Shown here piece after piece: positions 4,044 through 61,170 of a stretch of 64,000 bases of DNA. A model generated the notes under the pieces. The model searched no databases. It was not told the origin of the DNA and worked only from the letters and a program-made list of their open reading frames with translations. Position numbers and translations under genes: made by a program. Every line of letters starts with the position of its first letter. Within the stretch, counting starts at the first letter, position 1. The stretch comes from Paludibacteraceae bacterium (lineage in GTDB: Bacteria; Bacteroidota; Bacteroidia; Bacteroidales; Paludibacteraceae), in NCBI GenBank assembly GCA_024399965.1, contig JAKSNJ010000007.1, positions 2,436 to 66,435 of the forward strand, read 5' to 3'.

Positions 4044-4803
4044 TCATTTTAGATGTTCCGGTTCCAAACCGGTTTTGTTTGCAAAAATACAAAATTTTTT
4101 CTAAACTTGCAAATAAAACAGGAATTATTGTATTAAAAATCCAAATTATGGACACGGCAATGGCGATGGCGGGCACGTTGGCGGTGTATTGTCCGAAAAT
4201 CAGTACCGCCCAGCCGCCTTTTATGGCTACATCTGCCACAGGCAGTGAGGGCATGATGCTCACGCACACGTAATAGACGGCTATGCTGCTAACGGCTTGC
4301 CACGGCGTGAGGGCAATGCCCACGAAGCGCAGCACCGCCCACAGTTGCACACCCCATACCAGATAGCGGACGACGGTCCAGAACAGGACGGGAAGCCATT
4401 TGCGCCAGTCACGCAACCATGCCTTGCCCTGCATTTTGAGTTGTTCACGGTCGATGTCCAGCCCTGCACTCACGAGGCGTGCCGGTATGTCTCCTGCCCG
4501 ATAGGGCGTGATGAACCCTGCCACCATACCTATCAGCACCTGATGCCAACTGTCCGAGAGCGTGATACTCTTCCACCCACGCAAGAGCCACTGCCACCGC
4601 ACGGTCTCAGCCCACAGTTGCACCGGAATGAGCAGCCCTGCCACCAGCAAGACCGTTCCTTCCCACGCACCTGCCTGACGGAAATACAGACCTATGTCGG
4701 CGTAGTGGCGATAGGTGGCAAGGCGGTAGATGAGGTAGCCAAAAGCCGCCACACTGACCAGCATACCGGCCCACTGAAGATATGTGAATTTACGGTGTGT
4801 CAC
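4018..4803 (-). CDS. Polytopic membrane protein, flippase-like / lysylphosphatidylglycerol-synthase TM-region family
   Basis: 261-aa hydrophobic ORF with several predicted TM helices. The family call is by general resemblance only. Confidence 0.5.
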   Translation of the reverse strand: MTHRKFTYLQWAGMLVSVAAFGYLIYRLATYRHYADIGLYFRQAGAWEGTVLLVAGLLIPVQLWAETVRWQWLLRGWKSITLSDSWHQVLIGMVAGFITPYRAGDIPARLVSAGLDIDREQLKMQGKAWLRDWRKWLPVLFWTVVRYLVWGVQLWAVLRFVGIALTPWQAVSSIAVYYVCVSIMPSLPVADVAIKGGWAVLIFGQYTANVPAIAIAVSIIWIFNTIIPVLFASLEKILYFCKQNRFGTGTSKMNDNYNKQE

Positions 4804-43400: not shown

Positions 43401-43432
43401 CAAATATACACTTTTTTTTTGATATATGCAAA
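43401..43432 (-). promoter_or_regulatory. Promoter of ansA (TTTG-N20-TAtaTTTG)
   Basis: Minus strand reads TTTGcatatatcaaaaaaaaaagtgTAtaTTTGcag. Confidence 0.7.
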
Positions 43433-43452: not shown

Positions 43453-43487
43453 GTGCATTGTGCATTGTCCACTGCCAACCACCACCC
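43453..43487 (+). repeat. Heptamer micro-array (gtgcatt gtgcatt gtccact gccaacc accaccc)
   Basis: Direct reading. The first about 20 nt recur at 49661..49688 inside a CDS. Confidence 0.8.
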
Positions 43488-43710
43488 CTCTTATCGTTCG
43501 TCTATCTCGAGACCAACGATATACGAACGATGAACGAACGGTGAACGGAGAGTGAATTTTGGGTGTTTTTTGGGGGCAAAAATTTTGGTTTTGGCAGTGA
43601 TTGAGTGGTCGCGATGTGGTCACGAAATACACAGGCGCTTTACTCGCCCCTTTTTTTAGCCGTATTGCCACCCACCGACTATGTTATGTTGATGTTATGT
43701 TGCAAACAGG
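43480..43710 (+). repeat. Intergenic repeat family, copy B (full length)
   Basis: Near-identical to the reverse complement of 53135..53360 over about 230 bp. It shares both ends with copy A. Confidence 0.92.
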
Positions 43711-43716
43711 TAAACA

Positions 43717-43795
43717 TCGTTCAGCCACAAAGTGGCGGTTAAACGCATCATTTTACAGAAAGATTTGCATATATCAAAAAAAATTTGTAACTTTG
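43717..43795 (+). promoter_or_regulatory. Conserved upstream module plus promoter (TTTG 43764..43767, TAacTTTG 43788..43795) of the PCMD-like gene
   Basis: cgttcagccacaaagtggcggttaaacgcatcattttacagaaagaTTTGcatatatcaaaaaaaatttgTAacTTTGcgc. Confidence 0.7.
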
Positions 43796-47158: not shown

Positions 47159-49141
47159 ATGAAAAAATGCTTATTGGGCTTGTTATGCTTGCCGATGTTA
47201 ATATCTTGTCAAAAACAACAGTTTAGTTACCACGTGGATAGATTTTACGATTTAGAGTTATTGCGCTACGAAGTGCCCGGTTGGGACCAATTGAGCGTGC
47301 AGCAAAAGACATTGGTGTACTACCTGTCCGAAGCCGCCTTGCAGGGGCGCGATATATTGTACGACCAAAACGGCCGTTACAACCTCCGTATCCGTCGGAC
47401 GCTGGAGAACTTATACACGAACTACCCCTATGACAAAAACACGGAGGAGTTTGCCCTGTTTGAGAAATACCTCAAGCGCGTGTGGTTCAGCAACGGTATT
47501 CACCACCACTACAGCGAAGATAAGTTCCTGCCCGAATTTACGCAGGAGTGGTTTGTAGAGGCATGTGCCCAAGCCGGTGTGGAATACGATGCAGCCATCT
47601 TGCCCGTTATGTTTGACCCTAACGTGATGGCTAAGCGCACTAACCAAGCTGCCGGTGTGGACTTAGTGGCTTGTTCTGCCGGCAATTACTACGGCGAGGG
47701 CGTGACCCAAGCCGAAGCTGAGGCATGGTATGAACAACATAAAGACACTACCGACGAACCACTGTGGATAGGGCTGAATAGCCAATTATGCAAGGATTCC
47801 ACTGGCGCTATTTACGAGCGCACCTATCGCATAGGTGGCTTATACGGCGAGGCGTTAGAGAAAATCAATTTCTGGTTAGAGAAGGCCTTGGAGGTGGCTG
47901 AAAACGATACCCAACGGGAAGTGATTGCCCACCTGATTGAATACAACCGTTCCGGTAATCTGCGCAGTTTCAATGCCTACTGCATCGCTTGGGTCAAGGA
48001 CCTTGAGAGCCGTGTGGACTTTGTGAACGGATTTACAGAGACCTATGCCGACCCCTTAGGCATCACGGGTACGTGGGAGTCGATTGTCAACTTCAAGGAC
48101 TTGGAGGCGACGCACCGTACCGAAATCATTTCCGCCAACGCACAGTGGTTTGAGGACCACTCCACCACCGACCCTATCTATAAGAAAGAGGAGGTAAAGG
48201 GTGTTAGTGCCAAGGTGATTACGGCTGCTATCTTGGCAGGTGACTGCTATCCGGCTACGCCTATCGGTATCAACCTGCCCAACGCCAACTGGATTCGCAA
48301 GTCGTATGGCAGCAAATCCGTTACGATAGACAACCTCGTTAAAGCATATAACGAGTCCGCCAAGGGCAACGGTTTCAACGAGGAGTTTATGATAGATGAC
48401 GAGATACGTGCGTTATATGACCAATATGGTGCCGTTTGCGGTGACTTGCATACCGACTTGCACGAGTGCGTCGGTCACGGTTCCGGTAAACTCATGCCGG
48501 GTGTGAGCAAGGATGCACTGAAGGAACATGCCTCCACCATAGAGGAAACACGTGCCGACCTGTTTGCCCTCTATTTCGTGGCAGACAGTAAATTGGTTGA
48601 GTTGGGGTTATTGCCGAACAAAGAGGCCTACAAGGCAGCTTATTACCAGCAGATGATGAATGGCTTGATGACGCAGTTGGTGCGTATCGAACCGGGTAAG
48701 GACATCGAGGAGGCACACATGCGCAATCGTCAGTTGATAGCCGCTTGGGTATTTGACCACTGTGAGAAGAACGAGATGGAAATCATTGAGCGCGATGGCA
48801 AACACTACTTGCAGATTAACGACTACGAGGGTGTTCGCCGTGTAGTAGGCGATATGTTAGCAGAGATACAGCGTATTACCTCCGAAGGCGACTATGCCGC
48901 GGCGAAGACATTGGTGGAGACGTATGCCGTTAAGGTGGATCAAGACTTGCATAAAGAGATTTTGGCGCGCTATGCTAAACTGAATTTGGCACCGTATAAG
49001 GGTTTTGTTAATCCTGTTTATACACCTGTTATGAACAAGAACGGTGTGATTACCGACGTCAAAATAGATTATACCGAAGGGTATGTAGAGCAGCACTTGC
49101 GCTATAGTCGAGACTACTCCAATCTGCCCGATGTGAATTGA
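47159..49141 (+). CDS. Dipeptidyl-peptidase III family (M49) lipoprotein
   Basis: HECVGHGSG zinc motif and downstream EE.RADL. Lipobox LISC. Confidence 0.8.
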   Translation: MKKCLLGLLCLPMLISCQKQQFSYHVDRFYDLELLRYEVPGWDQLSVQQKTLVYYLSEAALQGRDILYDQNGRYNLRIRRTLENLYTNYPYDKNTEEFALFEKYLKRVWFSNGIHHHYSEDKFLPEFTQEWFVEACAQAGVEYDAAILPVMFDPNVMAKRTNQAAGVDLVACSAGNYYGEGVTQAEAEAWYEQHKDTTDEPLWIGLNSQLCKDSTGAIYERTYRIGGLYGEALEKINFWLEKALEVAENDTQREVIAHLIEYNRSGNLRSFNAYCIAWVKDLESRVDFVNGFTETYADPLGITGTWESIVNFKDLEATHRTEIISANAQWFEDHSTTDPIYKKEEVKGVSAKVITAAILAGDCYPATPIGINLPNANWIRKSYGSKSVTIDNLVKAYNESAKGNGFNEEFMIDDEIRALYDQYGAVCGDLHTDLHECVGHGSGKLMPGVSKDALKEHASTIEETRADLFALYFVADSKLVELGLLPNKEAYKAAYYQQMMNGLMTQLVRIEPGKDIEEAHMRNRQLIAAWVFDHCEKNEMEIIERDGKHYLQINDYEGVRRVVGDMLAEIQRITSEGDYAAAKTLVETYAVKVDQDLHKEILARYAKLNLAPYKGFVNPVYTPVMNKNGVITDVKIDYTEGYVEQHLRYSRDYSNLPDVN

Positions 49142-50913
49142 TGGCTATTGACCTGCCAATATCAAAAAGTATAGCGAACCGTCTATTGATGTTGCAAGCT
49201 ATTCACGGAGACCCCCTCTTGGAGGTCTCTTGTGATATGCCCGACGATGTCCGCCTCATTCATGACGTATTAAGCCACCTATCACCTACCTGCTACAACC
49301 TACCACCTACAACCTATCACCTCTCCAATTGTGGCACGGCTATGCGTTTCCTGACGGCTTATTGTGCGCAGTTAGAGGGCTGTGAAGTCGTCTTGGACGG
49401 AGATGAACGTATGCACCACCGGCCGATAGGGCAATTGGTAGATGCTCTCGTGCGCGCAGGGGCGCATATAGAATATATAGGTGAGCAGGGCTATCCGCCT
49501 TTGCGTATTATGGGGCGTGCGTTGCCTCGTACTGCGATTACATTGCTGCACCCGCAATCGTCACAATTTGTAAGCGCATTGCTCTTGATGGGCTTTCCTG
49601 TAACGACCGACTGCCGTTCACCGTATATCGCTATGACCCAACACATCATAGCCAACTACCGTGCATTGTGCATTGCCAACCGTCCATTGGAGAAGGATTG
49701 GTCAGCTGCGGCTTTTTGGTATGAGTACGTGGCGTTGCATGGTGGCGAATTGGAGTTACCGGGGTTGAGTGCGCATAGTGTACAGGGAGATAAGGTAGTG
49801 GCAGACCTGTTCCGTCCGTTGGGGGTGGCAACCACCTACACCGATACAGGTATTCGAATACGCCGAACGGGTAATGTGAATGGCTGCCCAAGAGTGGTGG
49901 ATTTTACGGACTGTCCGGACCTTTACCCGGCAGTGGCTATTACTTATAGGCAGTTGGCTAAACCGTTGATAGCACGTGGCACAGCGTCCCTGCGTATTAA
50001 GGAAAGCGACCGCATCAAGGCCGTTCAGCAGCAAACGACCTACCACGACCACCGTATAGCCATGGCCTTGCTGGCTGCCGACCTGCCTTGCGACGATAAG
50101 GAATGTGTTTCCAAGTCCTACCCTCGTTTTGTAGAACAACTGTCAACTGTCAACTCTCAATTCTCAACTGTCATTCCGCGCCGAGGAATTAACGACGAGG
50201 GCAAGGGTAAGAAATATGCCTTGCATAAACTCATTTCTGCTGCCACTACCGACTATGTGTGGCTGATGGACGATGATGTTCTCCCAGCCCCCATTCTCCA
50301 TTCTCCATTCTCCATTCTCCATTTTCCTGCCGACCTATATATTTTGCCCCTGAAGATGGTGGAGGGACGGTCTTTATTGGAGCGTTTGCAGGTGGCTGAA
50401 TATGCAGCCATTCAGGAGGTGACAATGCGTACTGCGAAGCGGGGCAAGGCAGTGATGTGCAGTGGGGCGAACTTAATTGTGCGGAGAGAAAGGTGGTTGG
50501 AGAGTTATGCTGATTTGCATACGGACATACCCAGTGGCGATGATATGTTTTTGTTGGAGTCGTTTCGCCGTCGCGGTTTGCAGATAAGTGTGATTGACCG
50601 CCCCGAATATACGGCTACGGTTACTGCTATACCTTCGTGGCGTGCGTTTTTTAGGCAACGTATGCGTTGGGCAGGCAAGGCGCCTCACTATACGGACCGT
50701 TATATCATTCGTTACGGGGCTGTTGTGCTGGGGGCTAATATGCTGCAACTGCTTTGTCCGCCGGTGTTGCTGGTGAAGTTCCCGTATGAATATCGTCTCA
50801 TCAAAAAAAGAGACCCGCAGGTCTCTTTTTGGATTGCTCTGTTGTTAGAGGTGTTATACCCCTATTACATGTTATTAGTCCTCTTGGGAGGGCTCTTCCG
50901 TCGCAGCTGGTAA
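49138..50913 (+). CDS. aroA: Single ORF joining a 3-phosphoshikimate 1-carboxyvinyltransferase-like (AroA) region (about aa 1-335) to the C-terminal two-thirds of a GT2 glycosyltransferase
   Basis: AroA-like: SKSIANRLL, NCGTAMRFL, RMHHRPIG.LVDAL, SSQFVSALLL, SPYIAMT, LRIKESDR, DHRIAMA, SKSYP.F. GT2-like: GKGKKYAL...., LMDDDV, QRMRWAGK, and TM helices. Heptamer arrays lie at 49275, 49661, 50138 (the junction) and 50292. Confidence 0.7.
   Translation: MMAIDLPISKSIANRLLMLQAIHGDPLLEVSCDMPDDVRLIHDVLSHLSPTCYNLPPTTYHLSNCGTAMRFLTAYCAQLEGCEVVLDGDERMHHRPIGQLVDALVRAGAHIEYIGEQGYPPLRIMGRALPRTAITLLHPQSSQFVSALLLMGFPVTTDCRSPYIAMTQHIIANYRALCIANRPLEKDWSAAAFWYEYVALHGGELELPGLSAHSVQGDKVVADLFRPLGVATTYTDTGIRIRRTGNVNGCPRVVDFTDCPDLYPAVAITYRQLAKPLIARGTASLRIKESDRIKAVQQQTTYHDHRIAMALLAADLPCDDKECVSKSYPRFVEQLSTVNSQFSTVIPRRGINDEGKGKKYALHKLISAATTDYVWLMDDDVLPAPILHSPFSILHFPADLYILPLKMVEGRSLLERLQVAEYAAIQEVTMRTAKRGKAVMCSGANLIVRRERWLESYADLHTDIPSGDDMFLLESFRRRGLQISVIDRPEYTATVTAIPSWRAFFRQRMRWAGKAPHYTDRYIIRYGAVVLGANMLQLLCPPVLLVKFPYEYRLIKKRDPQVSFWIALLLEVLYPYYMLLVLLGGLFRRSW
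49275..49323 (+). repeat. Heptamer micro-array, 7 units (ccaccta tcaccta cctgcta caaccta ccaccta caaccta tcacctc), in frame in the AroA-like region
   Basis: Direct reading. It encodes ..HLSPTCYNLPPTTYHLS.. immediately before the NCGTAMR motif. Confidence 0.9.
49661..49688 (+). repeat. Heptamer micro-array (gtgcatt gtgcatt gccaacc gtccatt), in frame in the AroA-like region
   Basis: Direct reading. It shares ccgtgcattgtgcattg with the intergenic array at 43451..43468. Confidence 0.8.
50138..50172 (+). repeat. Heptamer micro-array, 5 units (aactgtc aactgtc aactctc aattctc aactgtc), at the AroA/GT2 junction
   Basis: Direct reading. It encodes EQLSTVNSQFSTV. Confidence 0.9.
50292..50326 (+). repeat. 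Heptamer micro-array, 5 units (cattctc x4, cattttc), in frame in the GT2-like region
   Basis: Direct reading. It encodes PILHSPFSILHFP. Confidence 0.9.
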
Positions 50914-51857: not shown

Positions 51858-53021
51858 CTACAACCCGTACTCCTTTATCTTCCTGTAGAGGGTACGTTCG
51901 GACTTGCCTAACAATTTAGCGGCGTCGCGTCGGTTGCCTTTGGTTTTTTCCAGAGTCTTGCGTATCATCTCTTTCTCAACCTCTTCCATGCTACTCACTT
52001 CTTCGGCATAAACGGCTGCTTCCTCTACGTCACGAATCTCCATTTTTGGTTTGGGATTTTCTACGGTAGATTGTTGCCGTTGCATCTTGAGGGCATTGAG
52101 TTGCTGGCGCATCTCGCTCATGTCGCGTTTCATGTCAAACAGCACTTTGTAGAGCAATTCGCGCTCGTTCATAAAGTTTTCGTTACTCTGCGCATTGGCG
52201 GTGCCACCCAAAACGAGGGCGTTGGCGCGTTCGTTTTCGGGCAAGTACTTACGCAGGGTGTCCGCCATGATGTCGTGGTTTTGCTCAATGATACTGATTT
52301 GTTCGGCCACGTTCTTCAGTTGGCGCACATTGCCGTTCCAGTAGTAACTCTTGAGCAGGTTGGTCGCCTCTTCGTTGAGCCGAATGGCCGGCATACGGTA
52401 TTTCTCACTGAAATCAACGGCAAACTTGCGGAATAGCATTGGTATATCGTCTTTGCGCTCGCGCAAGGCAGGTACTTTTATTTCTACGGTATTGAGACGG
52501 TAATACAGATCTTCGCGGAAACGGCCGTTGCGAATGGCGTCCTGCATATTGAGGTTGGTGGCTGCCACTACGCGCACATTCGTTTTTTGCACTTGGCTGC
52601 TGCCCATACGAATGAACTCACCTGTTTCCAATACGCGCAACAGACGCACTTGGGTAGCGATGGGAAGTTCCCCTACTTCGTCCAAGAAGAGTGTACCGCC
52701 GTTGGCTATTTCAAAGTATCCCTTTCGCTCGGCTTTGGCGTCGGTAAAGGCGCCTTTTTCGTGGCCAAACAACTCACTATCAATGGTTCCCTCTGGGATA
52801 GCACCGCAGTTAACGGCAAAATACGGACCGTGTTTGCGTGTGCTGAAGGCGTGTATTATTTGTGGGAAGAATTCTTTTCCGACACCCGACTCACCGGTCA
52901 CTAACACGCTCAACTCGGTGGGTGCTACTTGCACTGCCACTTCAATCGCACGATTCAGATGAGCGTCCTGCCCAATGATGCCAAATCGTTGCTTAATCGC
53001 CTGTAAATCTTGTGTTGTCAT
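51858..53021 (-). CDS. Sigma-54-dependent transcriptional activator (AAA+ plus Fis-type HTH, no receiver domain)
   Basis: GESGVGKE Walker A, GAFTDA (GAFTGA-like), LFLDEVGEL, and C-terminal HTH AAKLLGKSERTLYRKIKEYG. Start set at the ATG at 53021. Confidence 0.88.
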   Translation of the reverse strand: MTTQDLQAIKQRFGIIGQDAHLNRAIEVAVQVAPTELSVLVTGESGVGKEFFPQIIHAFSTRKHGPYFAVNCGAIPEGTIDSELFGHEKGAFTDAKAERKGYFEIANGGTLFLDEVGELPIATQVRLLRVLETGEFIRMGSSQVQKTNVRVVAATNLNMQDAIRNGRFREDLYYRLNTVEIKVPALRERKDDIPMLFRKFAVDFSEKYRMPAIRLNEEATNLLKSYYWNGNVRQLKNVAEQISIIEQNHDIMADTLRKYLPENERANALVLGGTANAQSNENFMNERELLYKVLFDMKRDMSEMRQQLNALKMQRQQSTVENPKPKMEIRDVEEAAVYAEEVSSMEEVEKEMIRKTLEKTKGNRRDAAKLLGKSERTLYRKIKEYGL

Positions 53022-53045
53022 ATCTCGTCTGCCAATTTGGCAGTG

Positions 53046-53125
53046 CAAAAGTACACTTTTTTTTTGATATATGCAAATCTTTTTACAAAAAGATGGATTT
53101 AACCGCCATTTTGTGGCTAAATGTT
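53046..53125 (-). promoter_or_regulatory. Promoter (TTTG 53074..53077, TActTTTG 53046..53053) plus conserved upstream module of the sigma-54 activator gene
   Basis: Minus strand reads catttagccacaaaatggcggttaaatccatctttttgtaaaaagaTTTGcatatatcaaaaaaaaagtgTActTTTGcac. Confidence 0.7.
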
Positions 53126-53134
53126 ATGTTGCTC

Positions 53135-53360
53135 CCTGTTTGCAACATAACATCAACATAACATAGTCGATGGTTGGCAATACGGCTAAAAAGGGGCGAG
53201 TAAAGCGCGAGTGTATTTCGTGACCACATCGCGACCACTCAATCACTGCCAAAACCAAGGATTTTGCACCCCAAAAACACCCAAAATTCACCCTCCGTGT
53301 ATCGTTCGTTCATCGTTCGTATATCGTTGGTCTCGAGATAGACGAACGATGAGAGGGTGA
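53135..53360 (-). repeat. Intergenic repeat family, copy C (full length, inverted relative to A and B)
   Basis: The reverse complement aligns with 43480..43710 over about 230 bp with scattered substitutions. Confidence 0.92.
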
Positions 53361-53416
53361 TGAGCACCCCGACCTCCTCAGAAAGGAGGAGGCAGGAGAT
53401 AAAAAAATACAAATTA

Positions 53417-53448
53417 TTTGTGTATTTCAAAAATTTTTAGTAACTTTG
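53417..53448 (+). promoter_or_regulatory. Promoter of the methyltransferase island (TTTG-N20-TAacTTTG)
   Basis: atTTGtgtatttcaaaaatttttagTAacTTTGcaa. Confidence 0.65.
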
Positions 53449-53469
53449 CAACGGCAAAGATAACTATAT

Positions 53470-54297
53470 ATGCAACGAACTGCGATTTTATCCGAACAAG
53501 ATTATCTGAACAAGATTATTTGCGGTGATTCTGGAGAGATATTACCCACATTTCCTGAAAATAGTGTCGATTTGGTTGTAACATCTCCACCTTATGATGA
53601 TTTGCGTACATATAATGGTTTTCAGGTTGATTTACATGCCATCGGCAAAGAATTATACAGAGTTCTAAAACCCGGTGGAGTGGTGGTGATGGTTATTCAA
53701 GATTCAACGAAAAACTTTGCCAAGTCCTTAACATCTTTCAAAACAATCGTTGATTGGTGTGATAATATCGGTTTCAAACTATTTGAAACATGTATTTATC
53801 ACAAATATGGCACAGAAGGAGCTTGGTGGAAAAATCGTTTTAGAGTTGATCATGAATATATGCCCATCTTCTTTAAGGGTGATAGGTTGCAGTATTTTGA
53901 TAAAGAGCCACTGAAAATTCCTTCAAAACATGGAGGAAAAGTAATGACCGGCAGCGGAAATCGGCATACAGATGGTACGACATCCGAGAGAGTCACTCGT
54001 CCCATCAATTTAATGAAATGCAGAGGAACCGTTTGGGATTACTTAATGGCAGGCGATAAAAACCCATTGAAAAGAAAACACCCTGCTGTTTTCCCTGATA
54101 AAATTCCCTACGATTGCATTCGATGCTTCTGTCCTGAAGATGGTATTGTTTTAGATCCTTTTGTTGGCAGTGGAACTACCGCTGTTATCGCCAAAAAATT
54201 AGGAAGGAAATATATTGGTATCGACATTTCGCAGGAATATTGCAATTTGTCAAATGAAAGAATCCGTAAAGAAGCAACAGATTTATTCAACAATTAA
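53470..54297 (+). CDS. DNA methyltransferase, beta-class amino-MTase (N4-cytosine or N6-adenine)
   Basis: Motif IV VVTSPPY precedes motif I LDPFVGSGTTAVIAKKLGRKYIGIDI. This order defines the beta class. The gene is AT-rich. Confidence 0.88.
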   Translation: MQRTAILSEQDYLNKIICGDSGEILPTFPENSVDLVVTSPPYDDLRTYNGFQVDLHAIGKELYRVLKPGGVVVMVIQDSTKNFAKSLTSFKTIVDWCDNIGFKLFETCIYHKYGTEGAWWKNRFRVDHEYMPIFFKGDRLQYFDKEPLKIPSKHGGKVMTGSGNRHTDGTTSERVTRPINLMKCRGTVWDYLMAGDKNPLKRKHPAVFPDKIPYDCIRCFCPEDGIVLDPFVGSGTTAVIAKKLGRKYIGIDISQEYCNLSNERIRKEATDLFNN

Positions 54298-54308
54298 AAC
54301 ATCGAATT

Positions 54309-55373
54309 ATGTCTAAGATAGAAGATTTATTGCAAGCACAAAACGACAAAATAGACTATGACGCGTTAATACAAAACTATCCATGGATTGTGGAATACGA
54401 CCGAAAATGTGTTCTTAGTCCCGATAGTGACGGTTTATTGTGTGGCTTGTTTATGGCTGCTGTCAGAAATTGGAAAATAGTTGGCTTTTATGATGACAAA
54501 GTGGGCTTAATAAACAATAATTATCGAACAGATGACTTGGTATTTTTAGATGGTGAGATTTTCCGTCCAAATGCAAAAAGTATGGGGCATCACATGGTTT
54601 GCCTTAACAATAAATTGAGACATCTATTAGACAATGGTTTTCAAAATTGCATACAGCCCAATTTATTAAGGAACTACGATGGTAAAAAACATTTTCGATT
54701 AAAGTACCCATTGGCATCTATTCACATGATAGTCAGTATTTTAGCGTATGCTGATAAGAACACAGACCATCCTATAACATTAACAACCAATGCCACAGCT
54801 CCCTTGTTCTTTACTGATGGTGTTTTCAATGTGTTATTTAAATATCCTGAAAATGTATTAAATTGGTTTCAGTATCTAAGAATAAATGAGGATTGGAATC
54901 CGCTAAAAGTGGTTTTTGAAAATCAAAATTCCGTTTTTAATACGATGCAATTGATGCATACTTTTTTCCAAGAACGAGACAAACTGACATTTGGAAAAGA
55001 AAGAGGAGACCGTTTAAAAATTTCCGAGAAAACGGGTGAACCCTGTAATATTGAAGGGTCCACAATCAACGAAGAAGCCGTCCAACGAATAAAGGCATTT
55101 TGTACGATGATGGGAAACGATACTGGGTGGGCATTCGATGATGCAGACTGGGAATGTTGGGAGAATTTGAAATTCTATAAATTCTCAAAGAGTAGTTTTT
55201 CCAATGATGGGAAAACGCTTACCATTGCCCATTTTGAAGATTTTATAGTTAACAAAAATCCTTTATCGTGGGCACAAACTTCAGGACAAAACATAGAATA
55301 CACAAAAGAAGAACCAAGTAGGTTTGAGTTTCTATCTGCAAAAAAAAGCAAAAAGTATAGCAAACGAAGATGA
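54309..55373 (+). CDS. Hypothetical protein, candidate nuclease partner of the adjacent methyltransferase
   Basis: 354 aa and AT-rich. It starts 11 nt after the MTase stop. I could find no clean PD-(D/E)XK or HNH motif. The N-terminus has SPDSDG .. FLDGE .. GHH, weakly reminiscent of the DHH phosphoesterase motif order. Confidence 0.5.
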   Translation: MSKIEDLLQAQNDKIDYDALIQNYPWIVEYDRKCVLSPDSDGLLCGLFMAAVRNWKIVGFYDDKVGLINNNYRTDDLVFLDGEIFRPNAKSMGHHMVCLNNKLRHLLDNGFQNCIQPNLLRNYDGKKHFRLKYPLASIHMIVSILAYADKNTDHPITLTTNATAPLFFTDGVFNVLFKYPENVLNWFQYLRINEDWNPLKVVFENQNSVFNTMQLMHTFFQERDKLTFGKERGDRLKISEKTGEPCNIEGSTINEEAVQRIKAFCTMMGNDTGWAFDDADWECWENLKFYKFSKSSFSNDGKTLTIAHFEDFIVNKNPLSWAQTSGQNIEYTKEEPSRFEFLSAKKSKKYSKRR

Positions 55374-56029
55374 GTTCGGTGGTGAGTTCGATATTGTTGT
55401 ACGAAGAGGACAGTACATTGGCGGAGCTGATGGTGGAGGCAGCGGCTAGTCATGATTATGCCGTTACGCACGCCATAGAGGCACAACAAGCCCTGCAGAT
55501 GGCCTTGTCCGGCAATTACGACTTGTGCATCTGCGACCAGTCCTTGTTGGAAGAGATACGCGAAGCCAATCTTCAATTGCCCGTTATCATTCTTTCGTCC
55601 CACAGCGACCGCAACGACATCATTGCCGGTTACCAAGCCGGTTGCGACGACTACGTGACCAAGCCATTCTCGATGGATATTCTCTTCTGCAAGATAGGTG
55701 CCGTCTTACGTCGTAGCATAGCCGCAGCGACGGCTCCATCGACGACGGTGTTTGAGTTGGGAACACTGGTGTTTGATGCCGAACGGCAGACACTGAACGG
55801 TCAGCCCCTTCGTAGCCGAGACAACGATATACTGCACCTGCTTTGTGCCCAACAGGGGCAGGTTGTGGAGCGCAGCCGACTACTCAAAACCCTTTGGAAA
55901 CGAAACGATTACTTCGCCTCTCGTTCCTTGTCCGTATATATCAACCACCTTCGTCACCTGTTGTCGTCCGAGCCCCGTTTACGGATTGTGACGGTGCACA
56001 ACAAAGGTTATAAAATCGTACTTGACTAA
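55370..56029 (+). CDS. OmpR/PhoB-type response regulator (no adjacent histidine kinase)
   Basis: Receiver domain (ILLYEEDS, LCICD, KPF). Winged-helix output (..LLKTLW....YFASRSLSVYINHLR..L......I.TV...GY). The ATG overlaps the preceding stop (ATGA). Confidence 0.85.
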   Translation: MSSVVSSILLYEEDSTLAELMVEAAASHDYAVTHAIEAQQALQMALSGNYDLCICDQSLLEEIREANLQLPVIILSSHSDRNDIIAGYQAGCDDYVTKPFSMDILFCKIGAVLRRSIAAATAPSTTVFELGTLVFDAERQTLNGQPLRSRDNDILHLLCAQQGQVVERSRLLKTLWKRNDYFASRSLSVYINHLRHLLSSEPRLRIVTVHNKGYKIVLD

Positions 56030-57745: not shown

Positions 57746-58509
57746 ACGCTCCCTTAACACGCAACCAACTGATAGGTGCGGGACTATTGCTGGTCCTGAT
57801 TGTTGGTTTCTTTGGGGCACTGCATTTCTTTCCTGCCGTCACGGTTACGGCTGTTCCTGCCCGTGATACCACAAAGCGCTACACCAAAGCTCATTACGAC
57901 AGCATACGTGCTGTCCGACGCGCCTATTATGACAGTTTACGCCTTGTACGGCGGGACAGTATTTATCACGCTATTATCGTTCATCGTGACAGTATGCGTC
58001 GTGCAGACAGTTTATGGTGGGACAGCGTGTTTACCGCCGATTCGCTATCTCGTCCGCCTCGCATTGCCAAATACGACACGATTGTGGAACTCAACACCGC
58101 CGACACGACCGACCTACAGCATATACGCGGTATCGGTGCAAGTACGGCACGGCGTATTGTGCGGTACAGGGAACAATTAGGCGGCTATGCCGATGTGAGG
58201 CAGTTGCAGGACCCCCAACTATACATGGACGACTACGGGCACTTGCACCCCAACCACTATACCATACCCGACTCCGTGCTGGTTTTCTTCACCGTAGAGC
58301 AGGACTCGGTACACCCCATAGCGGTCAATCACGCCAGTGTGGAACGGCTGCAACGGCACCCGTATATATCGTTTACGATGGCCAAAGCCATTTATACCCT
58401 ACGGCGGAAATATCTTCGCCTCAGGTGCATAGACGAATTACGGAGCCAGCCCTTTATGACCGACTCCGTAATCAACCGGCTGACGCCGTATTTGGATTTT
58501 GCGCCTTAG
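57742..58509 (+). CDS. Helix-hairpin-helix (ComEA-like) membrane-anchored protein
   Basis: N-terminal TM helix. Two HhH units (LNTADTTDLQHIRGIGASTARRIVRYR, VNHASVERLQRHPYISFTMAKAI). It has a repetitive R-R-DS-rich linker. Confidence 0.7.
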   Translation: MNAPLTRNQLIGAGLLLVLIVGFFGALHFFPAVTVTAVPARDTTKRYTKAHYDSIRAVRRAYYDSLRLVRRDSIYHAIIVHRDSMRRADSLWWDSVFTADSLSRPPRIAKYDTIVELNTADTTDLQHIRGIGASTARRIVRYREQLGGYADVRQLQDPQLYMDDYGHLHPNHYTIPDSVLVFFTVEQDSVHPIAVNHASVERLQRHPYISFTMAKAIYTLRRKYLRLRCIDELRSQPFMTDSVINRLTPYLDFAP

Positions 58510-60278
58510 ATGCCCAGCGATGCCCTGATGGCAGGCACACGTGCTTCGGCAGCGGCGGTAGCCGCAGCGTAATCAGCAGGTGTCTTCATCGTGGCAGGTA
58601 TTTCAAAGTAGAACTTAATCTTGGGCTCCGTACCGCTGGGACGCACACTGACCTTGAGTCCGCCGGCGGTGAAGTATTGCAGCACGTTGGACTTGGCGTC
58701 CAATGCCATGTGAATAGGTTTGCTCTGCCACTGCCCGTTGACCAAGTTGCGTTCCTCAGACAGTTGGTAGTCCTTGGTGCAGATGACTTGTTCACCGGCA
58801 ATCGTTTGCGGCGGGTTCTGACGGTAATTCACCATCATTTGGGCAATTTCTTCGGCACCCGTCTTACCCGGGCGAACGATGTTGACGGTTGCCTCGCGTT
58901 GGAAACCGTATTCCATGTAGATATTCAGCAGATACTCGTAGAGCGACATGCCATTATCTTTGGCGTAAGCAGCAATCTCGCAGATGAGACAGATAGCAGA
59001 TGGCGAACATTTATCGCGCACGGCATCGTATGCCATAAAGCCAAAGGACTCCTCACCGCCACCGATGTACTTGCGGTCTTTCTCCCACATACGCACGCGG
59101 TTGGCAATCCACTTAAAGCCGGTGTATTCGTCGGTCAGCGTTACGCCCTGACGGTCGGCAATACGGCGAATGACCTCACTGGTGACGATGGTTTTGGAGA
59201 GGTACATGTCGGGGGTCATTTTGCCCAGACGCTTCATGTTGTTGATGATATAGTAGCAGTACATCATGCAGGTTTGGTTACCGTTGATGATGACCCACTC
59301 GTTCTTGTCGTTTCGGCAGACGATGGCGATACGGTCTGCGTCCGGGTCACTGGCGATAACGAGGTCAGCGTTGAGTTTGGTGCCGAGGTTCATGCCCATG
59401 GTCATGGCTTCGGAGTTCTCGGGGTTAGGCGAAACGACTGTGGGGAAGTTGCCGTCTATGACCATCTGCTCGGGCACAACGTGGATATTTTGGAAGCCCC
59501 AACTGCGCAAGCACATCGGGATAATCTGCCGTCCCGTGCCATGCAGGGGAGTATAGACGATGTTGAGGTCTTTTTGGCGGAGAATAACATCTTGGTCAAT
59601 CATGACAGACTTGACCGCCATCATATAATCATAGTCCATTTCGCCGCCGATGATCTGAATCAGGTCCTTGTCGCCACCGGTCTTGACATCTGCCATGGTG
59701 ACCTTGTTCACCTCGTCGATGATGCCCTTGTCGTGGGGTTGCAGCACTTGCGAGCCGTCCTCCCAGTAGGCCTTGTAGCCGTTGTATTCCTTGGGGTTGT
59801 GCGAGGCAGTCACGTTCACACCGCCTTGGCACTTGAGATGACGGATAGCAAAACTGACTTCGGGTGTGGGGCGCAAGCTCTCAAAGAGATAGACCTTGAT
59901 GCCGTTGGCAGCGAACACGTCAGCCACCGTTTCGGCAAAGAGGCGACCGTTGTTACGGCAGTCATGCCCCACAATGACGGACACCTGCCCACCCTTTTCG
60001 AGCGTAGCAAAACCGCCCTCACGGGCAATCTTGTTCAGGTAGTTGGCATAGCCCTGCGTGGCCTGTGCCACGATGTATTTATTCATGCGGTTGGTGCCGG
60101 GCCCCATGATGCCACGCAAGCCGCCTGTACCAAATTCGAGCGTACGGTAAAACGAGTCAATGAGTTCCGATTTATCCTCTGCTTCCATCATCTGTTTGAC
60201 TTGTGCTTTGGTTTCTGCGTCATAGTTGCCATCGAGCCACGTTTGCGCAGTCGCCATAATCTGTTTCAATTCATCCAT
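58506..60278 (-). CDS. Alpha-D-phosphohexomutase (phosphoglucomutase/phosphomannomutase family)
   Basis: Active-site loop TASHNPKEYNGYK, metal loop ASDPDADR, and GEESFG. Start set at the ATG at 60278 (MDELKQ). Confidence 0.9.
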   Translation of the reverse strand: MDELKQIMATAQTWLDGNYDAETKAQVKQMMEAEDKSELIDSFYRTLEFGTGGLRGIMGPGTNRMNKYIVAQATQGYANYLNKIAREGGFATLEKGGQVSVIVGHDCRNNGRLFAETVADVFAANGIKVYLFESLRPTPEVSFAIRHLKCQGGVNVTASHNPKEYNGYKAYWEDGSQVLQPHDKGIIDEVNKVTMADVKTGGDKDLIQIIGGEMDYDYMMAVKSVMIDQDVILRQKDLNIVYTPLHGTGRQIIPMCLRSWGFQNIHVVPEQMVIDGNFPTVVSPNPENSEAMTMGMNLGTKLNADLVIASDPDADRIAIVCRNDKNEWVIINGNQTCMMYCYYIINNMKRLGKMTPDMYLSKTIVTSEVIRRIADRQGVTLTDEYTGFKWIANRVRMWEKDRKYIGGGEESFGFMAYDAVRDKCSPSAICLICEIAAYAKDNGMSLYEYLLNIYMEYGFQREATVNIVRPGKTGAEEIAQMMVNYRQNPPQTIAGEQVICTKDYQLSEERNLVNGQWQSKPIHMALDAKSNVLQYFTAGGLKVSVRPSGTEPKIKFYFEIPATMKTPADYAAATAAAEARVPAIRASLGI

Positions 60279-60315
60279 ATTTGTATTATTTCTAAAGTTA
60301 TACGAATTTGCAGTG

Positions 60316-60347
60316 CAAAGATACAACTAATTTTTGAGATATGCAAA
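60316..60347 (-). promoter_or_regulatory. Promoter of the phosphohexomutase gene (TTTG-N20-TAtcTTTG)
   Basis: Minus strand reads TTTGcatatctcaaaaattagttgTAtcTTTGcac. Confidence 0.7.
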
Positions 60348-60369
60348 TTTATTTGCCACAGCAGACCAT

Positions 60370-61170
60370 TTATTTGTTAAAGGAGGGACGGCAGAAGGTG
60401 GAATAGACGGGGGTGGCGCCGGGTCGGTAGTTGAGGTAGCGTTTGAGCCACGGCAGGTGCTGCTGCTCCACCGTTTGTACGAATAGTTGCGCAGCCATCA
60501 GTGCGCCCTGCTCGCGGTAGTGGGTGTTGTCAATCTTGCCCTCGGGGAACTTGGTACATTCCCCTGCCGGCACGTTCATGTAGTATGGCTTGCTGGCATC
60601 GTCTCCAATGGACTGCAGCCAAGCGGCGGTGAGTTGCTCCATGTCGATGAGGGGCACGCGCATATCGTGCGCGACCTGCTTGGCAGCGGTGGGGTAATCG
60701 CCGTGGTGGAAATAGAATTCACCGTTTTTGAAGTACCGACGCGCCACGGGTGTGCAGAGAATGACGTGCAACTTTTTCTGCTGCGCTTCGCGCACCATCT
60801 TGGTCAGGTTGGCGGTGTAGTCCTCCACGGAGGCATAGCGTGTAGGGTCACTGACTTTGGCATCGTTGTGTCCGAATTGGATAACCACGATGTCGCCCTT
60901 GCGGGCACGACGCATGACCTCAGCCCAACGCCCTTCGTCCAAGAAGGACTTGGTGGAACGGCCGTTCATGGCATGGTTTTGGAGAATAATATTCCCCTTA
61001 AGGTAGGTAGGCAACAGTTGTCCCCACCCCCGTTCGGGAGAGATGTCCAACTCTGTTTTGTCCGCCATGGTGGAGTCGCCCACCATAAAGAGGGTCACGG
61101 GTCGCTTGGTAGCAGCCCCACACAGCAGCAAAGCTACTGCCATACAAACCAAATAAAAGCTCTTTCTCAT
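60370..61170 (-). CDS. SGNH/GDSL hydrolase (rhamnogalacturonan acetylesterase-like)
   Basis: Block I FMVGDSTMA, block II NHAMNGRS, block III FGHND, and block V D.TH. Signal peptide. Start set at the ATG at 61170. Confidence 0.85.
   Translation of the reverse strand: MRKSFYLVCMAVALLLCGAATKRPVTLFMVGDSTMADKTELDISPERGWGQLLPTYLKGNIILQNHAMNGRSTKSFLDEGRWAEVMRRARKGDIVVIQFGHNDAKVSDPTRYASVEDYTANLTKMVREAQQKKLHVILCTPVARRYFKNGEFYFHHGDYPTAAKQVAHDMRVPLIDMEQLTAAWLQSIGDDASKPYYMNVPAGECTKFPEGKIDNTHYREQGALMAAQLFVQTVEQQHLPWLKRYLNYRPGATPVYSTFCRPSFNK

Follow-up and report, generated by a model that had tools for sequence, protein, structure and literature searches.

A low-GC two-gene cassette in a Paludibacteraceae genome as a probable Type IIP restriction-modification system with a candidate restriction enzyme of an undescribed family

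The window analysed here is a stretch of 64,000 nucleotides from Paludibacteraceae bacterium (assembly GCA_024399965.1, 1.66 Mb; contig JAKSNJ010000007.1, 73 kb, positions 2,436 to 66,435 of the forward strand), and it contains a cassette of 1.9 kb, of low GC content, formed by two genes. The first (53470-54297, plus strand) codes for an amino-methyltransferase of 275 amino acids, the putative M subunit of a restriction-modification (R-M) system, and the second (54309-55373, plus strand), separated from it by 11 nt, for a partner of 354 amino acids, the candidate restriction endonuclease or R subunit, which belongs to an undescribed family always linked to the methyltransferase (MTase). The TGA of the partner overlaps the ATG of a native OmpR/RprY-like response regulator of 219 amino acids (55370-56029, plus strand), the start codon lying inside the ATGA of the junction (...gaagATGAgtt...). 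In the GC profile of the window the values are 0.32-0.41 over 53400-55400 and 0.50-0.56 on both sides; taken by unit, GC is 0.362 for the cassette, 0.521 for the regulator and 0.501 for the sigma-54 activator gene on the other side. An earlier note on this DNA, made from the sequence alone, had described an AT-rich segment, the 11-nt gap followed by a 354-residue open reading frame (ORF), the stop/start overlap with an OmpR-type regulator and a left border abutting a repeat copy, and all of these descriptions hold.

The MTase is, judged by its motifs, a beta-class amino-methyltransferase. It matches the N6_N4_Mtase family of Pfam (PF01555, 1.4e-40) and the Type II MTase models of PADLOC (MTase_II, 4.9e-49), with a weak secondary match to the mad2 model of MADS (9.5e-17) in the same library. 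As the earlier note had read, SPPY comes before FVGSGTT: motif IV is found at residues 39-42, in the context TSPPY, ahead of motif I near residue 230, in the context DPFVGSGTT. The order IV-I and an SPP(Y/F) rather than a (D/N)PP(Y/F) motif are those of the beta-class N4-cytosine MTases, and the best named relatives in PDB, by sequence search, are N4-cytosine enzymes, namely 8s9n (1e-19) and M.PvuII (1boo, 8e-17). From the SPPY motif, N4-cytosine is the most likely target base and N4-methylcytosine (m4C) the probable product.

Homologs of the partner number 652 in a collection clustered at 90% identity, every one of them unnamed, and a profile search of a library clustered at 50% recovered 567 representatives at E <= 1e-3. 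Linkage was counted over 80 loci taken from contigs of one genome per species, representing unrelated carriers from bacteria and archaea. In all 80 an ortholog of the MTase lies at 158 bp or less from the partner gene; co-inheritance of the pair in other genomes, which the earlier note had named beforehand as a test, was thus found without exception. The orthologs are 49-80% identical to the window MTase (at least 62% in 78 of the 80), and across carriers the MTase is better conserved than the partner (mostly 62-80% versus 41-67%). A modification gene more conserved than its restriction gene is usual for R-M pairs. Two arrangements occur, with the MTase upstream and co-directional, as in the window, at 22 loci, and downstream and convergent at the remaining 58. 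The MTase and the partner, together with a controller gene in the convergent loci, are the only genes common to the carriers, and no further nuclease candidate accompanies the MTase. Hence the 354-residue protein would be the sole nuclease candidate of the system.

The convergent loci supply a further element. An ORF ending at the start of the partner is present in 39 of the 53 that could be assessed, and about 35 of these ORFs are 66-87 amino acids long. Six of the eight controller-type ORFs tested are HTH_3 proteins of the Xre/Cro type (1e-14 to 1e-17), and many such helix-turn-helix ORFs carry HRTYIGMIERGEKNI, a signature of R-M controller (C) proteins. A C gene placed upstream of R, with M convergent, is the PvuII-type device that delays the toxic nuclease (PMC2377437). 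Not every Type II system includes a C gene, and the window locus has none, M being directly upstream of R.

Fusions and distant relatives extend the association. One protein (P0206, 623 amino acids) is a single-chain fusion with an SPPY N6_N4 MTase at its N-terminus and a partner domain; another (P0175, 272 amino acids) joins HTH_3 to the partner; and a third (P0163, 459 amino acids) is a superfamily variant with a C-terminal extension of about 120 residues. Distant members of the superfamily share the N-terminal 190 residues or so only, differ in their C-terminal domains, and adjoin N6_N4 MTases in the four cases examined, out of four. This suggests that the superfamily combines a modular catalytic domain with a specificity domain. 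In one Bacteroidales metagenome-assembled genome (MAG) the partner ORF ends after 71 amino acids (L078:1838-2050) while the tblastn match is full-length; this copy, next to an intact MTase, is likely frameshifted or inactivated.

The distribution of the pair is wide and patchy. Carriers were found in Bacteroidota, Firmicutes/Clostridia, Elusimicrobia, many members of the Candidate Phyla Radiation (CPR), DPANN archaea (Woese- and Pacearchaeota), Methanobrevibacter and methanogens, Planctomycetota, Chlorobiaceae and Hyphomicrobiales, and their genomes are nearly all MAGs. Closer to the window the partner is rare, being present in two of 41 related genomes, with none among 24 of the same genus and one among 16 of the same order. 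A tblastn search of annotated records, comprising 72,556 plasmids and 50,697 phages, gave no match to the partner.

The word content of carrier genomes points to the target. Avoidance was measured as the ratio of observed to expected counts (O/E) against a maximal-order Markov expectation, with ranks among the 512 pentamer pairs. In the own genome the degenerate palindrome AGSCT occurs 113 times against 1950 expected (O/E 0.058, z = -59) and ranks first. In genomes of the same genus without the cassette (24 congeners, 140 kb) the ratio is 0.93, at rank 139, and in genomes of the same order without it (60 kb) 1.21, at rank 495. Among carriers AGSCT ranks first again, whether in the flanks only of the 80 loci (O/E 0.40), in their R-M genes (0.17) or in unlinked DNA from five other carrier genomes (0.24). 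Locus by locus, the word is below expectation in 68 of 76 cases (sign test p = 6e-13), 23 loci lack any site, and the depletion persists in every bin of identity to the window partner. The 113 sites that remain in the host show no bias in their flanking bases, so that the pentamer would be the whole site. The loss of a palindromic word in step with carriage of an MTase-linked gene pair is the mark of an active Type II restriction enzyme, and AGSCT is very probably the target of this system. Its fourth base is C on either strand, as suits an N4-cytosine enzyme; its first base is likewise A on either strand, and N6-methyladenine may be the methylated base instead.

Two other features of word usage in the own genome were observed. 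Of the residual AGSCT sites, 39 of 113 are grouped in about 45 kb made up of three stretches (C30, 11 kb; C23:60-71.5 kb, with GC of 0.37; C6:14.5-36.5 kb), at densities of 0.4-1.8 sites per kb versus 0.03-0.04 elsewhere; these stretches probably stem from recent acquisition, from mobile elements or from mis-binning of contigs. The genome also avoids CCWGG (O/E 0.065), CTAG (0.08), GTAGAC/GTCTAC (0.09), CATATG (0.10), GTATAC (0.13), GATC (0.17) and GTGCAC (0.21), which suggests several more restriction specificities acting on the lineage.

The horizontal acquisition of a Type II R-M pair, proposed in the earlier note, is supported by linkage at 80 of 80 loci, absence from 24 congeners, the C genes, the MTase fusion and the avoidance of AGSCT. 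That the cassette is an R-M system can be stated with high confidence, and very probably it is a horizontally acquired two-gene system of Type IIP with the partner as its restriction enzyme; comparison of sequences makes that role for the 354-residue protein equally probable. In such a system the MTase would methylate AGSCT on both strands, and the partner, acting as a metal-dependent phosphodiesterase that is possibly a very distant relative of the DHH/DHHA1 proteins, would attack unmethylated AGSCT in incoming DNA. M and R, co-directional and without a controller gene, would be expressed directly behind a host-type promoter, and transcription would run on into the regulator as the last of three cistrons in an M-R-regulator operon.

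Avoidance of the word could, in principle, have another cause, with the partner serving the MTase as a non-restriction accessory in specificity, regulation or repair. The DHH superfamily, whose members recur among the fold matches described below, includes non-catalytic proteins such as Cdc45, itself one of those matches. Such a role is nevertheless very improbable: only two genes are common to the carriers (with the controller in convergent loci), so no other nuclease candidate is at hand; avoidance goes with the cassette and is not seen in congeners that lack it; and solitary MTases such as Dam and CcrM are not known to cause site avoidance, nor is m4C known to be strongly mutagenic. Control by a C protein is, moreover, a device to delay a toxic gene (PMC2377437). 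The lack of a PADLOC or Pfam assignment for the partner and the weak mad2 match of the MTase would fit a modification-dependent or non-canonical defence module, in which the partner senses or attacks methylated or foreign DNA, an alternative that the earlier note had kept beside the R-M pair. This is not favoured and has a negligible probability, since a nuclease that depends on modification would be suicidal beside an MTase that makes its target, Type II models fit the MTase far better than mad2 does, and two genes, C-protein control and one depleted palindrome fit a classical Type IIP system.

Searches of Pfam, NCBIfam, PADLOC and PHROGs gave no match for the partner itself, and sequence and profile searches of PDB returned chance matches only (E = 0.65-1.4). 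The earlier note had failed to find PD-(D/E)XK, HNH, GIY-YIG or HKD motifs in it, in agreement with four hidden Markov model libraries without a match and fold searches without a nuclease of any recognised restriction-enzyme fold among the top 50 PDB matches; no significant match, in sequence or structure, placed it in a characterised non-nuclease family either. AlphaFold2 gives a confident model (predicted local distance difference test, pLDDT, 91.5 and predicted template-modelling score, pTM, 0.91 for the whole protein; pLDDT 93.5 for residues 1-228), with an N-terminal alpha/beta domain and a helical extension followed by a C-terminal alpha/beta domain. Conservation was assessed over 67 superfamily representatives from a clustering at 50% identity, in which D39 (kept in 65 of the 67), D41 and K132 (both in all 67), D81, H95, N118, H139, D170 and N182 stand out as near-invariant polar residues; residue 83 is acidic throughout, and residue 94 is either H or N. 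The motif SPDSDG (residues 37-42; 54417-54434, plus strand), just past strand beta-1, contains a candidate metal-binding DxD resembling motif I of DHH proteins, and FLDGE (79-83) and GHH (93-95) (54543-54593, plus strand), recovered in family and superfamily alignments, both stand at the C-terminal ends of predicted beta strands. The last two had been located correctly in the earlier note, whereas SPDSDG had been assigned to residues 39-42. In the model D39/D41, D81/E83, H95 and N118 come after beta strands and would thus line a parallel sheet at its C-terminal edge, a placement shared by many enzymes of metal-dependent phosphoryl transfer; this arrangement suggests a metal-dependent phosphodiesterase.

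The invariant K132 allows a different chemistry to be considered. It could act as a lyase lysine in an R-M pair whose R protein is not a phosphodiesterase and works as a glycosylase/apurinic-apyrimidinic lyase, or by other means, like R.PabI; the partner has no known nuclease fold, and R.PabI and other restriction glycosylases provide precedents (PMC5059719, PMC10273834). This possibility is slight, as neither HALFPIPE nor a glycosylase appears in the top 50 Foldseek matches, and a set of four Asp plus His and Asn, all invariant, is found more typically where phosphoryl transfer depends on metal ions.

Returning to the metal-dependent phosphodiesterase, its closest structural neighbours were sought with Foldseek, PDB being searched with both the full model and the N-terminal domain by itself, and BFVD with the full model. 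For the full model both lists are headed by RecJ, Cdc45, archaeal RecJ and DHH phosphohydrolases, and for the N-terminal domain by Staphylococcus aureus RecJ and Borrelia DhhP. Rossmann-like matches, NAD synthetase among them, were dismissed (probability <=0.08). The motifs also brought the HAD (DxDG after beta-1), Toprim and calcineurin-like (GNH) folds into consideration; these were rejected, being absent from the fold searches and apparently a misfit in spacing or topology. Profile comparison with hhalign used NrnA and RecJ templates built from the genomes searched in this analysis. Against NrnA, strand beta-1, SPDSDG and the next helix match motif I (PDGDA) only (P = 0.0035), and the RecJ profile gave nothing. 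A permissive alignment is co-linear for DHH motifs I, II (VFLD) and IV (FFTDG), pairs ERGDRLKIS with the "ikiSfRS" strand of DHHA1, and puts the DHH motif of the template on the invariant CIQPN and not on GHH. The Asp residues D39xD41, D81 and D170 are invariant and follow the DHH-motif order, with motif III reading G-(H/N)-H without Asp. No GGGH or similar motif occurs in the family alignments, and the partner has no Pfam match at E <= 1 to PF01368 (DHH) or DHHA1, while that PF01368 model recovered RecJ and NrnA from all the genomes searched. The resemblance to DHH motifs I-III that the earlier note had seen is a reasonable reading, consistent with the profile match at motif I and yet unproven, as the Asp of motif III, a Pfam DHH match and a significant fold match are missing; the structure prediction and fold search it had proposed yielded a confident model and no significant fold assignment. 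On model and alignments, a distant derivation from the DHH/DHHA1 fold has chances somewhat short of even, and would be a possible relationship and not membership.

Several points weigh against the proposed Type IIP system or its chemistry. Cleavage and the methylated base are what we infer from comparative evidence. The top 50 Foldseek matches in PDB, for both models, include no restriction enzyme and no PD-(D/E)XK, HNH, GIY-YIG, PLD or HALFPIPE protein, and the DHH matches are weak (best E 3.5e-3, best probability 0.80, best TM 0.41, the latter after domain excision); with a more diverse superfamily profile the hhalign match to NrnA reaches P = 7e-4 and a probability of 27% at most. The DHH enzymes characterised so far are exonucleases, nanoRNases or phosphatases, and none is known to be a sequence-specific duplex endonuclease. 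There is also a tension between the low GC content, which speaks of a recent arrival, and the 17-fold genome-wide loss of AGSCT, which speaks of long exposure of the lineage. A clean empty site between the sigma-54 activator and the regulator, which the earlier note had suggested looking for in relatives, was found in none of the congeners, these being too divergent (regulator 39-47% identical). Finally, nothing relevant on AGSCT as a restriction or methylation motif was found in the open literature, and a prior REBASE listing of the family or the specificity is possible; no prototype enzyme of AGSCT specificity is known.

Among known systems, the cassette resembles the PvuII type in its separate small MTase, with SPP(Y/F) before FxGxG, in its inferred palindromic target and its mobile, patchy spread, and in the relatives of the window locus that have a C-R operon convergent with M. 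It differs in the absence of C from the window copy, in the order M then R, in the target, AGSCT as compared with CAGCTG, and in the R protein, since R.PvuII is a PD-(D/E)XK enzyme of 157 amino acids and the members of the partner family, of some 340-354, have neither the signature nor a fold match of that kind. With the DHH/DHHA1 proteins (RecJ, NrnA, Borrelia DhhP, GdpP, Cdc45) the partner shares similar size, a two-domain alpha/beta layout and a DxD right after beta-1, followed by a helix and then Asp, His and Asp in the same order; this is the sole class that recurs at the top of the three fold searches, and the sole one with an hhalign match. It departs from them in the lack of a Pfam DHH/DHHA1 match, in having G(H/N)H instead of DHH, no GGGH and other motif spacing, and in structural similarity (TM <=0.41, all E > 1e-3), and known DHH enzymes are neither site-specific duplex endonucleases nor linked to MTases. 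R.PabI offers a parallel as a Type II enzyme of non-classical fold found through MTase linkage and mobility (PMC2441816, PMC5059719, PMC10273834), although the partner has no structural or sequence similarity to HALFPIPE. The fusion P0206, which joins an SPPY MTase to a partner domain, recalls enzymes of Types IIC and IIG; the window genes are separate, however, and in P0206 the MTase is N-terminal and the nuclease-like domain is of the partner family and not PD-(D/E)XK or Mrr.

Restriction enzymes are basic tools and belong to the most common prokaryotic defence. The system type found here is an ordinary one, combined with an undescribed nuclease family, possibly of new fold and specificity. 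Five restriction-enzyme folds are recognised, PD-(D/E)XK, HNH, GIY-YIG, PLD and HALFPIPE, and in 2008 a further 56 characterised and 521 predicted restriction enzymes were without a fold; DHH was not mentioned (PMC2441816). Nothing relevant on restriction enzymes of DHH type was found in the open literature. That the partner family represents a sixth Type II catalytic architecture, in which a two-domain metal phosphodiesterase derived from DHH/DHHA1 serves as a sequence-specific cutter of duplex DNA with AGSCT specificity, is a tentative and rather doubtful proposal. On this proposal the kept N-terminal catalytic domain and the swapped C-terminal domain would be a modular source of further new specificities. 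Cleavage and methylation by the pair, if true, would mean a new family of restriction enzymes, possibly with a new fold and a new 5-bp specificity, and DHH-like chemistry on duplex DNA. The family, absent from Pfam, NCBIfam, PADLOC, PHROGs and PDB, counts hundreds of cluster representatives from bacteria and archaea, almost all of them in uncultured lineages. The comparative evidence is strong and the predicted target concrete, so that cleavage and methylation of AGSCT are directly testable.

The surroundings of the cassette bear on how it was inserted. On its left (53060-53358, no strand assigned) lies one copy of an intergenic repeat, some 300 bp long, that is dispersed over the 1.66-Mb assembly with 54 matches, 73-100% identical and often fragmentary. 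This copy contains an inverted repeat of 16 nt (53310-53352), another copy is found in the window at about 43486-43781 (minus strand), and the repeat is bracketed by outward-facing promoters of Bacteroidetes type; it looks like an element related to miniature inverted-repeat transposable elements or a promoter-carrying intergenic module. The cassette is preceded by one promoter of this form, TTTG-N20-TAACTTTG (53417-53448, plus strand; TTTG at -33 and TAACTTTG at -7), 21 nt before the ATG of the MTase. In the window 14 instances of the pattern TTTG-N17-23-TANNTTTG were counted, where 1.6 would be expected. Promoter and leader, including TTTGCA...GCAAA, align with a native promoter module near 43401-43432, beside the second repeat copy, and the promoter looks native rather than imported. 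There is no E. coli sigma-70 site at this position, a scan for promoters and terminators of E. coli type being uninformative for this host. The promoter that the earlier note had attributed to the island is real, is host-type in pattern and seems not to be a part of the imported DNA. An extended consensus, TTTGCATAT(A/T)TCAAAAAAA...TGTAnnTTTG, was also noticed at 14 sites versus 1.6 expected, for example at 4082, 5846, 18213, 43401, 43764, 51261, 53046, 60316 and 61179; it far exceeds the usual -33/-7 elements in length and is possibly part of the repeat family.

Foreign DNA seems to start about 15-20 nt before the ATG of the MTase and to end at the ATG of the regulator. The C-terminus of the partner (...FLSAKKSKKYSKRR) runs some 10-14 residues beyond the usual end of the family, which fits read-through into junction DNA. 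The junction with the regulator has no intergenic space, and no other promoter-like site lies between. From this layout we infer an insertion of the cassette between the regulator gene and a host promoter, and co-transcription of the regulator from that upstream promoter, as third cistron of an M-R-regulator operon, is somewhat favoured. A selfish R-M cassette would thus have become built into a host operon, seemingly spliced in between promoter and regulator. One congener that lacks the cassette has the same gene order, regulator-rpe-xseA-comEA, and two congeners without it keep the regulator-rpe synteny and have different genes upstream. In an exact-protein look-up of the regulator, the only contig returned was 100% identical to the window, with no strain carrying an empty site.

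The regulator is, by its domains, a member of the OmpR family, with a receiver (REC, PF00072, 1e-15) and a Trans_reg_C domain (PF00486, 6e-16); its best NCBIfam model is RprY, at 162 bits and below the cut-off of 370, so that it is not a confirmed RprY. The earlier note had seen no kinase gene nearby, and no histidine kinase ATPase domain (HATPase_c) is found on the whole 73-kb contig (C42). The regulator orthologs of two congeners (L020:7330-7400; L021:5160-5230, minus strand) are preceded by TGGCA(C/T)GGTATTTGT, a sigma-54-like -24/-12 element, and the window regulator has no such element upstream. The upstream neighbour of the cassette (51858-53048, minus strand) is a sigma-54 activator without a receiver domain.

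Two ORFs elsewhere in the window deserve mention. One of 591 amino acids (49138-50913, plus strand) joins a partial EPSP-synthase domain (residues about 37-170 and a second stretch) to a family-2 glycosyltransferase, and must be an unusual fusion or else a degraded aroA. The other, of 788 amino acids (58014-60380, plus strand), runs antisense to a phosphoglucomutase gene (58506-60326, minus strand) and is almost certainly a spurious shadow ORF.

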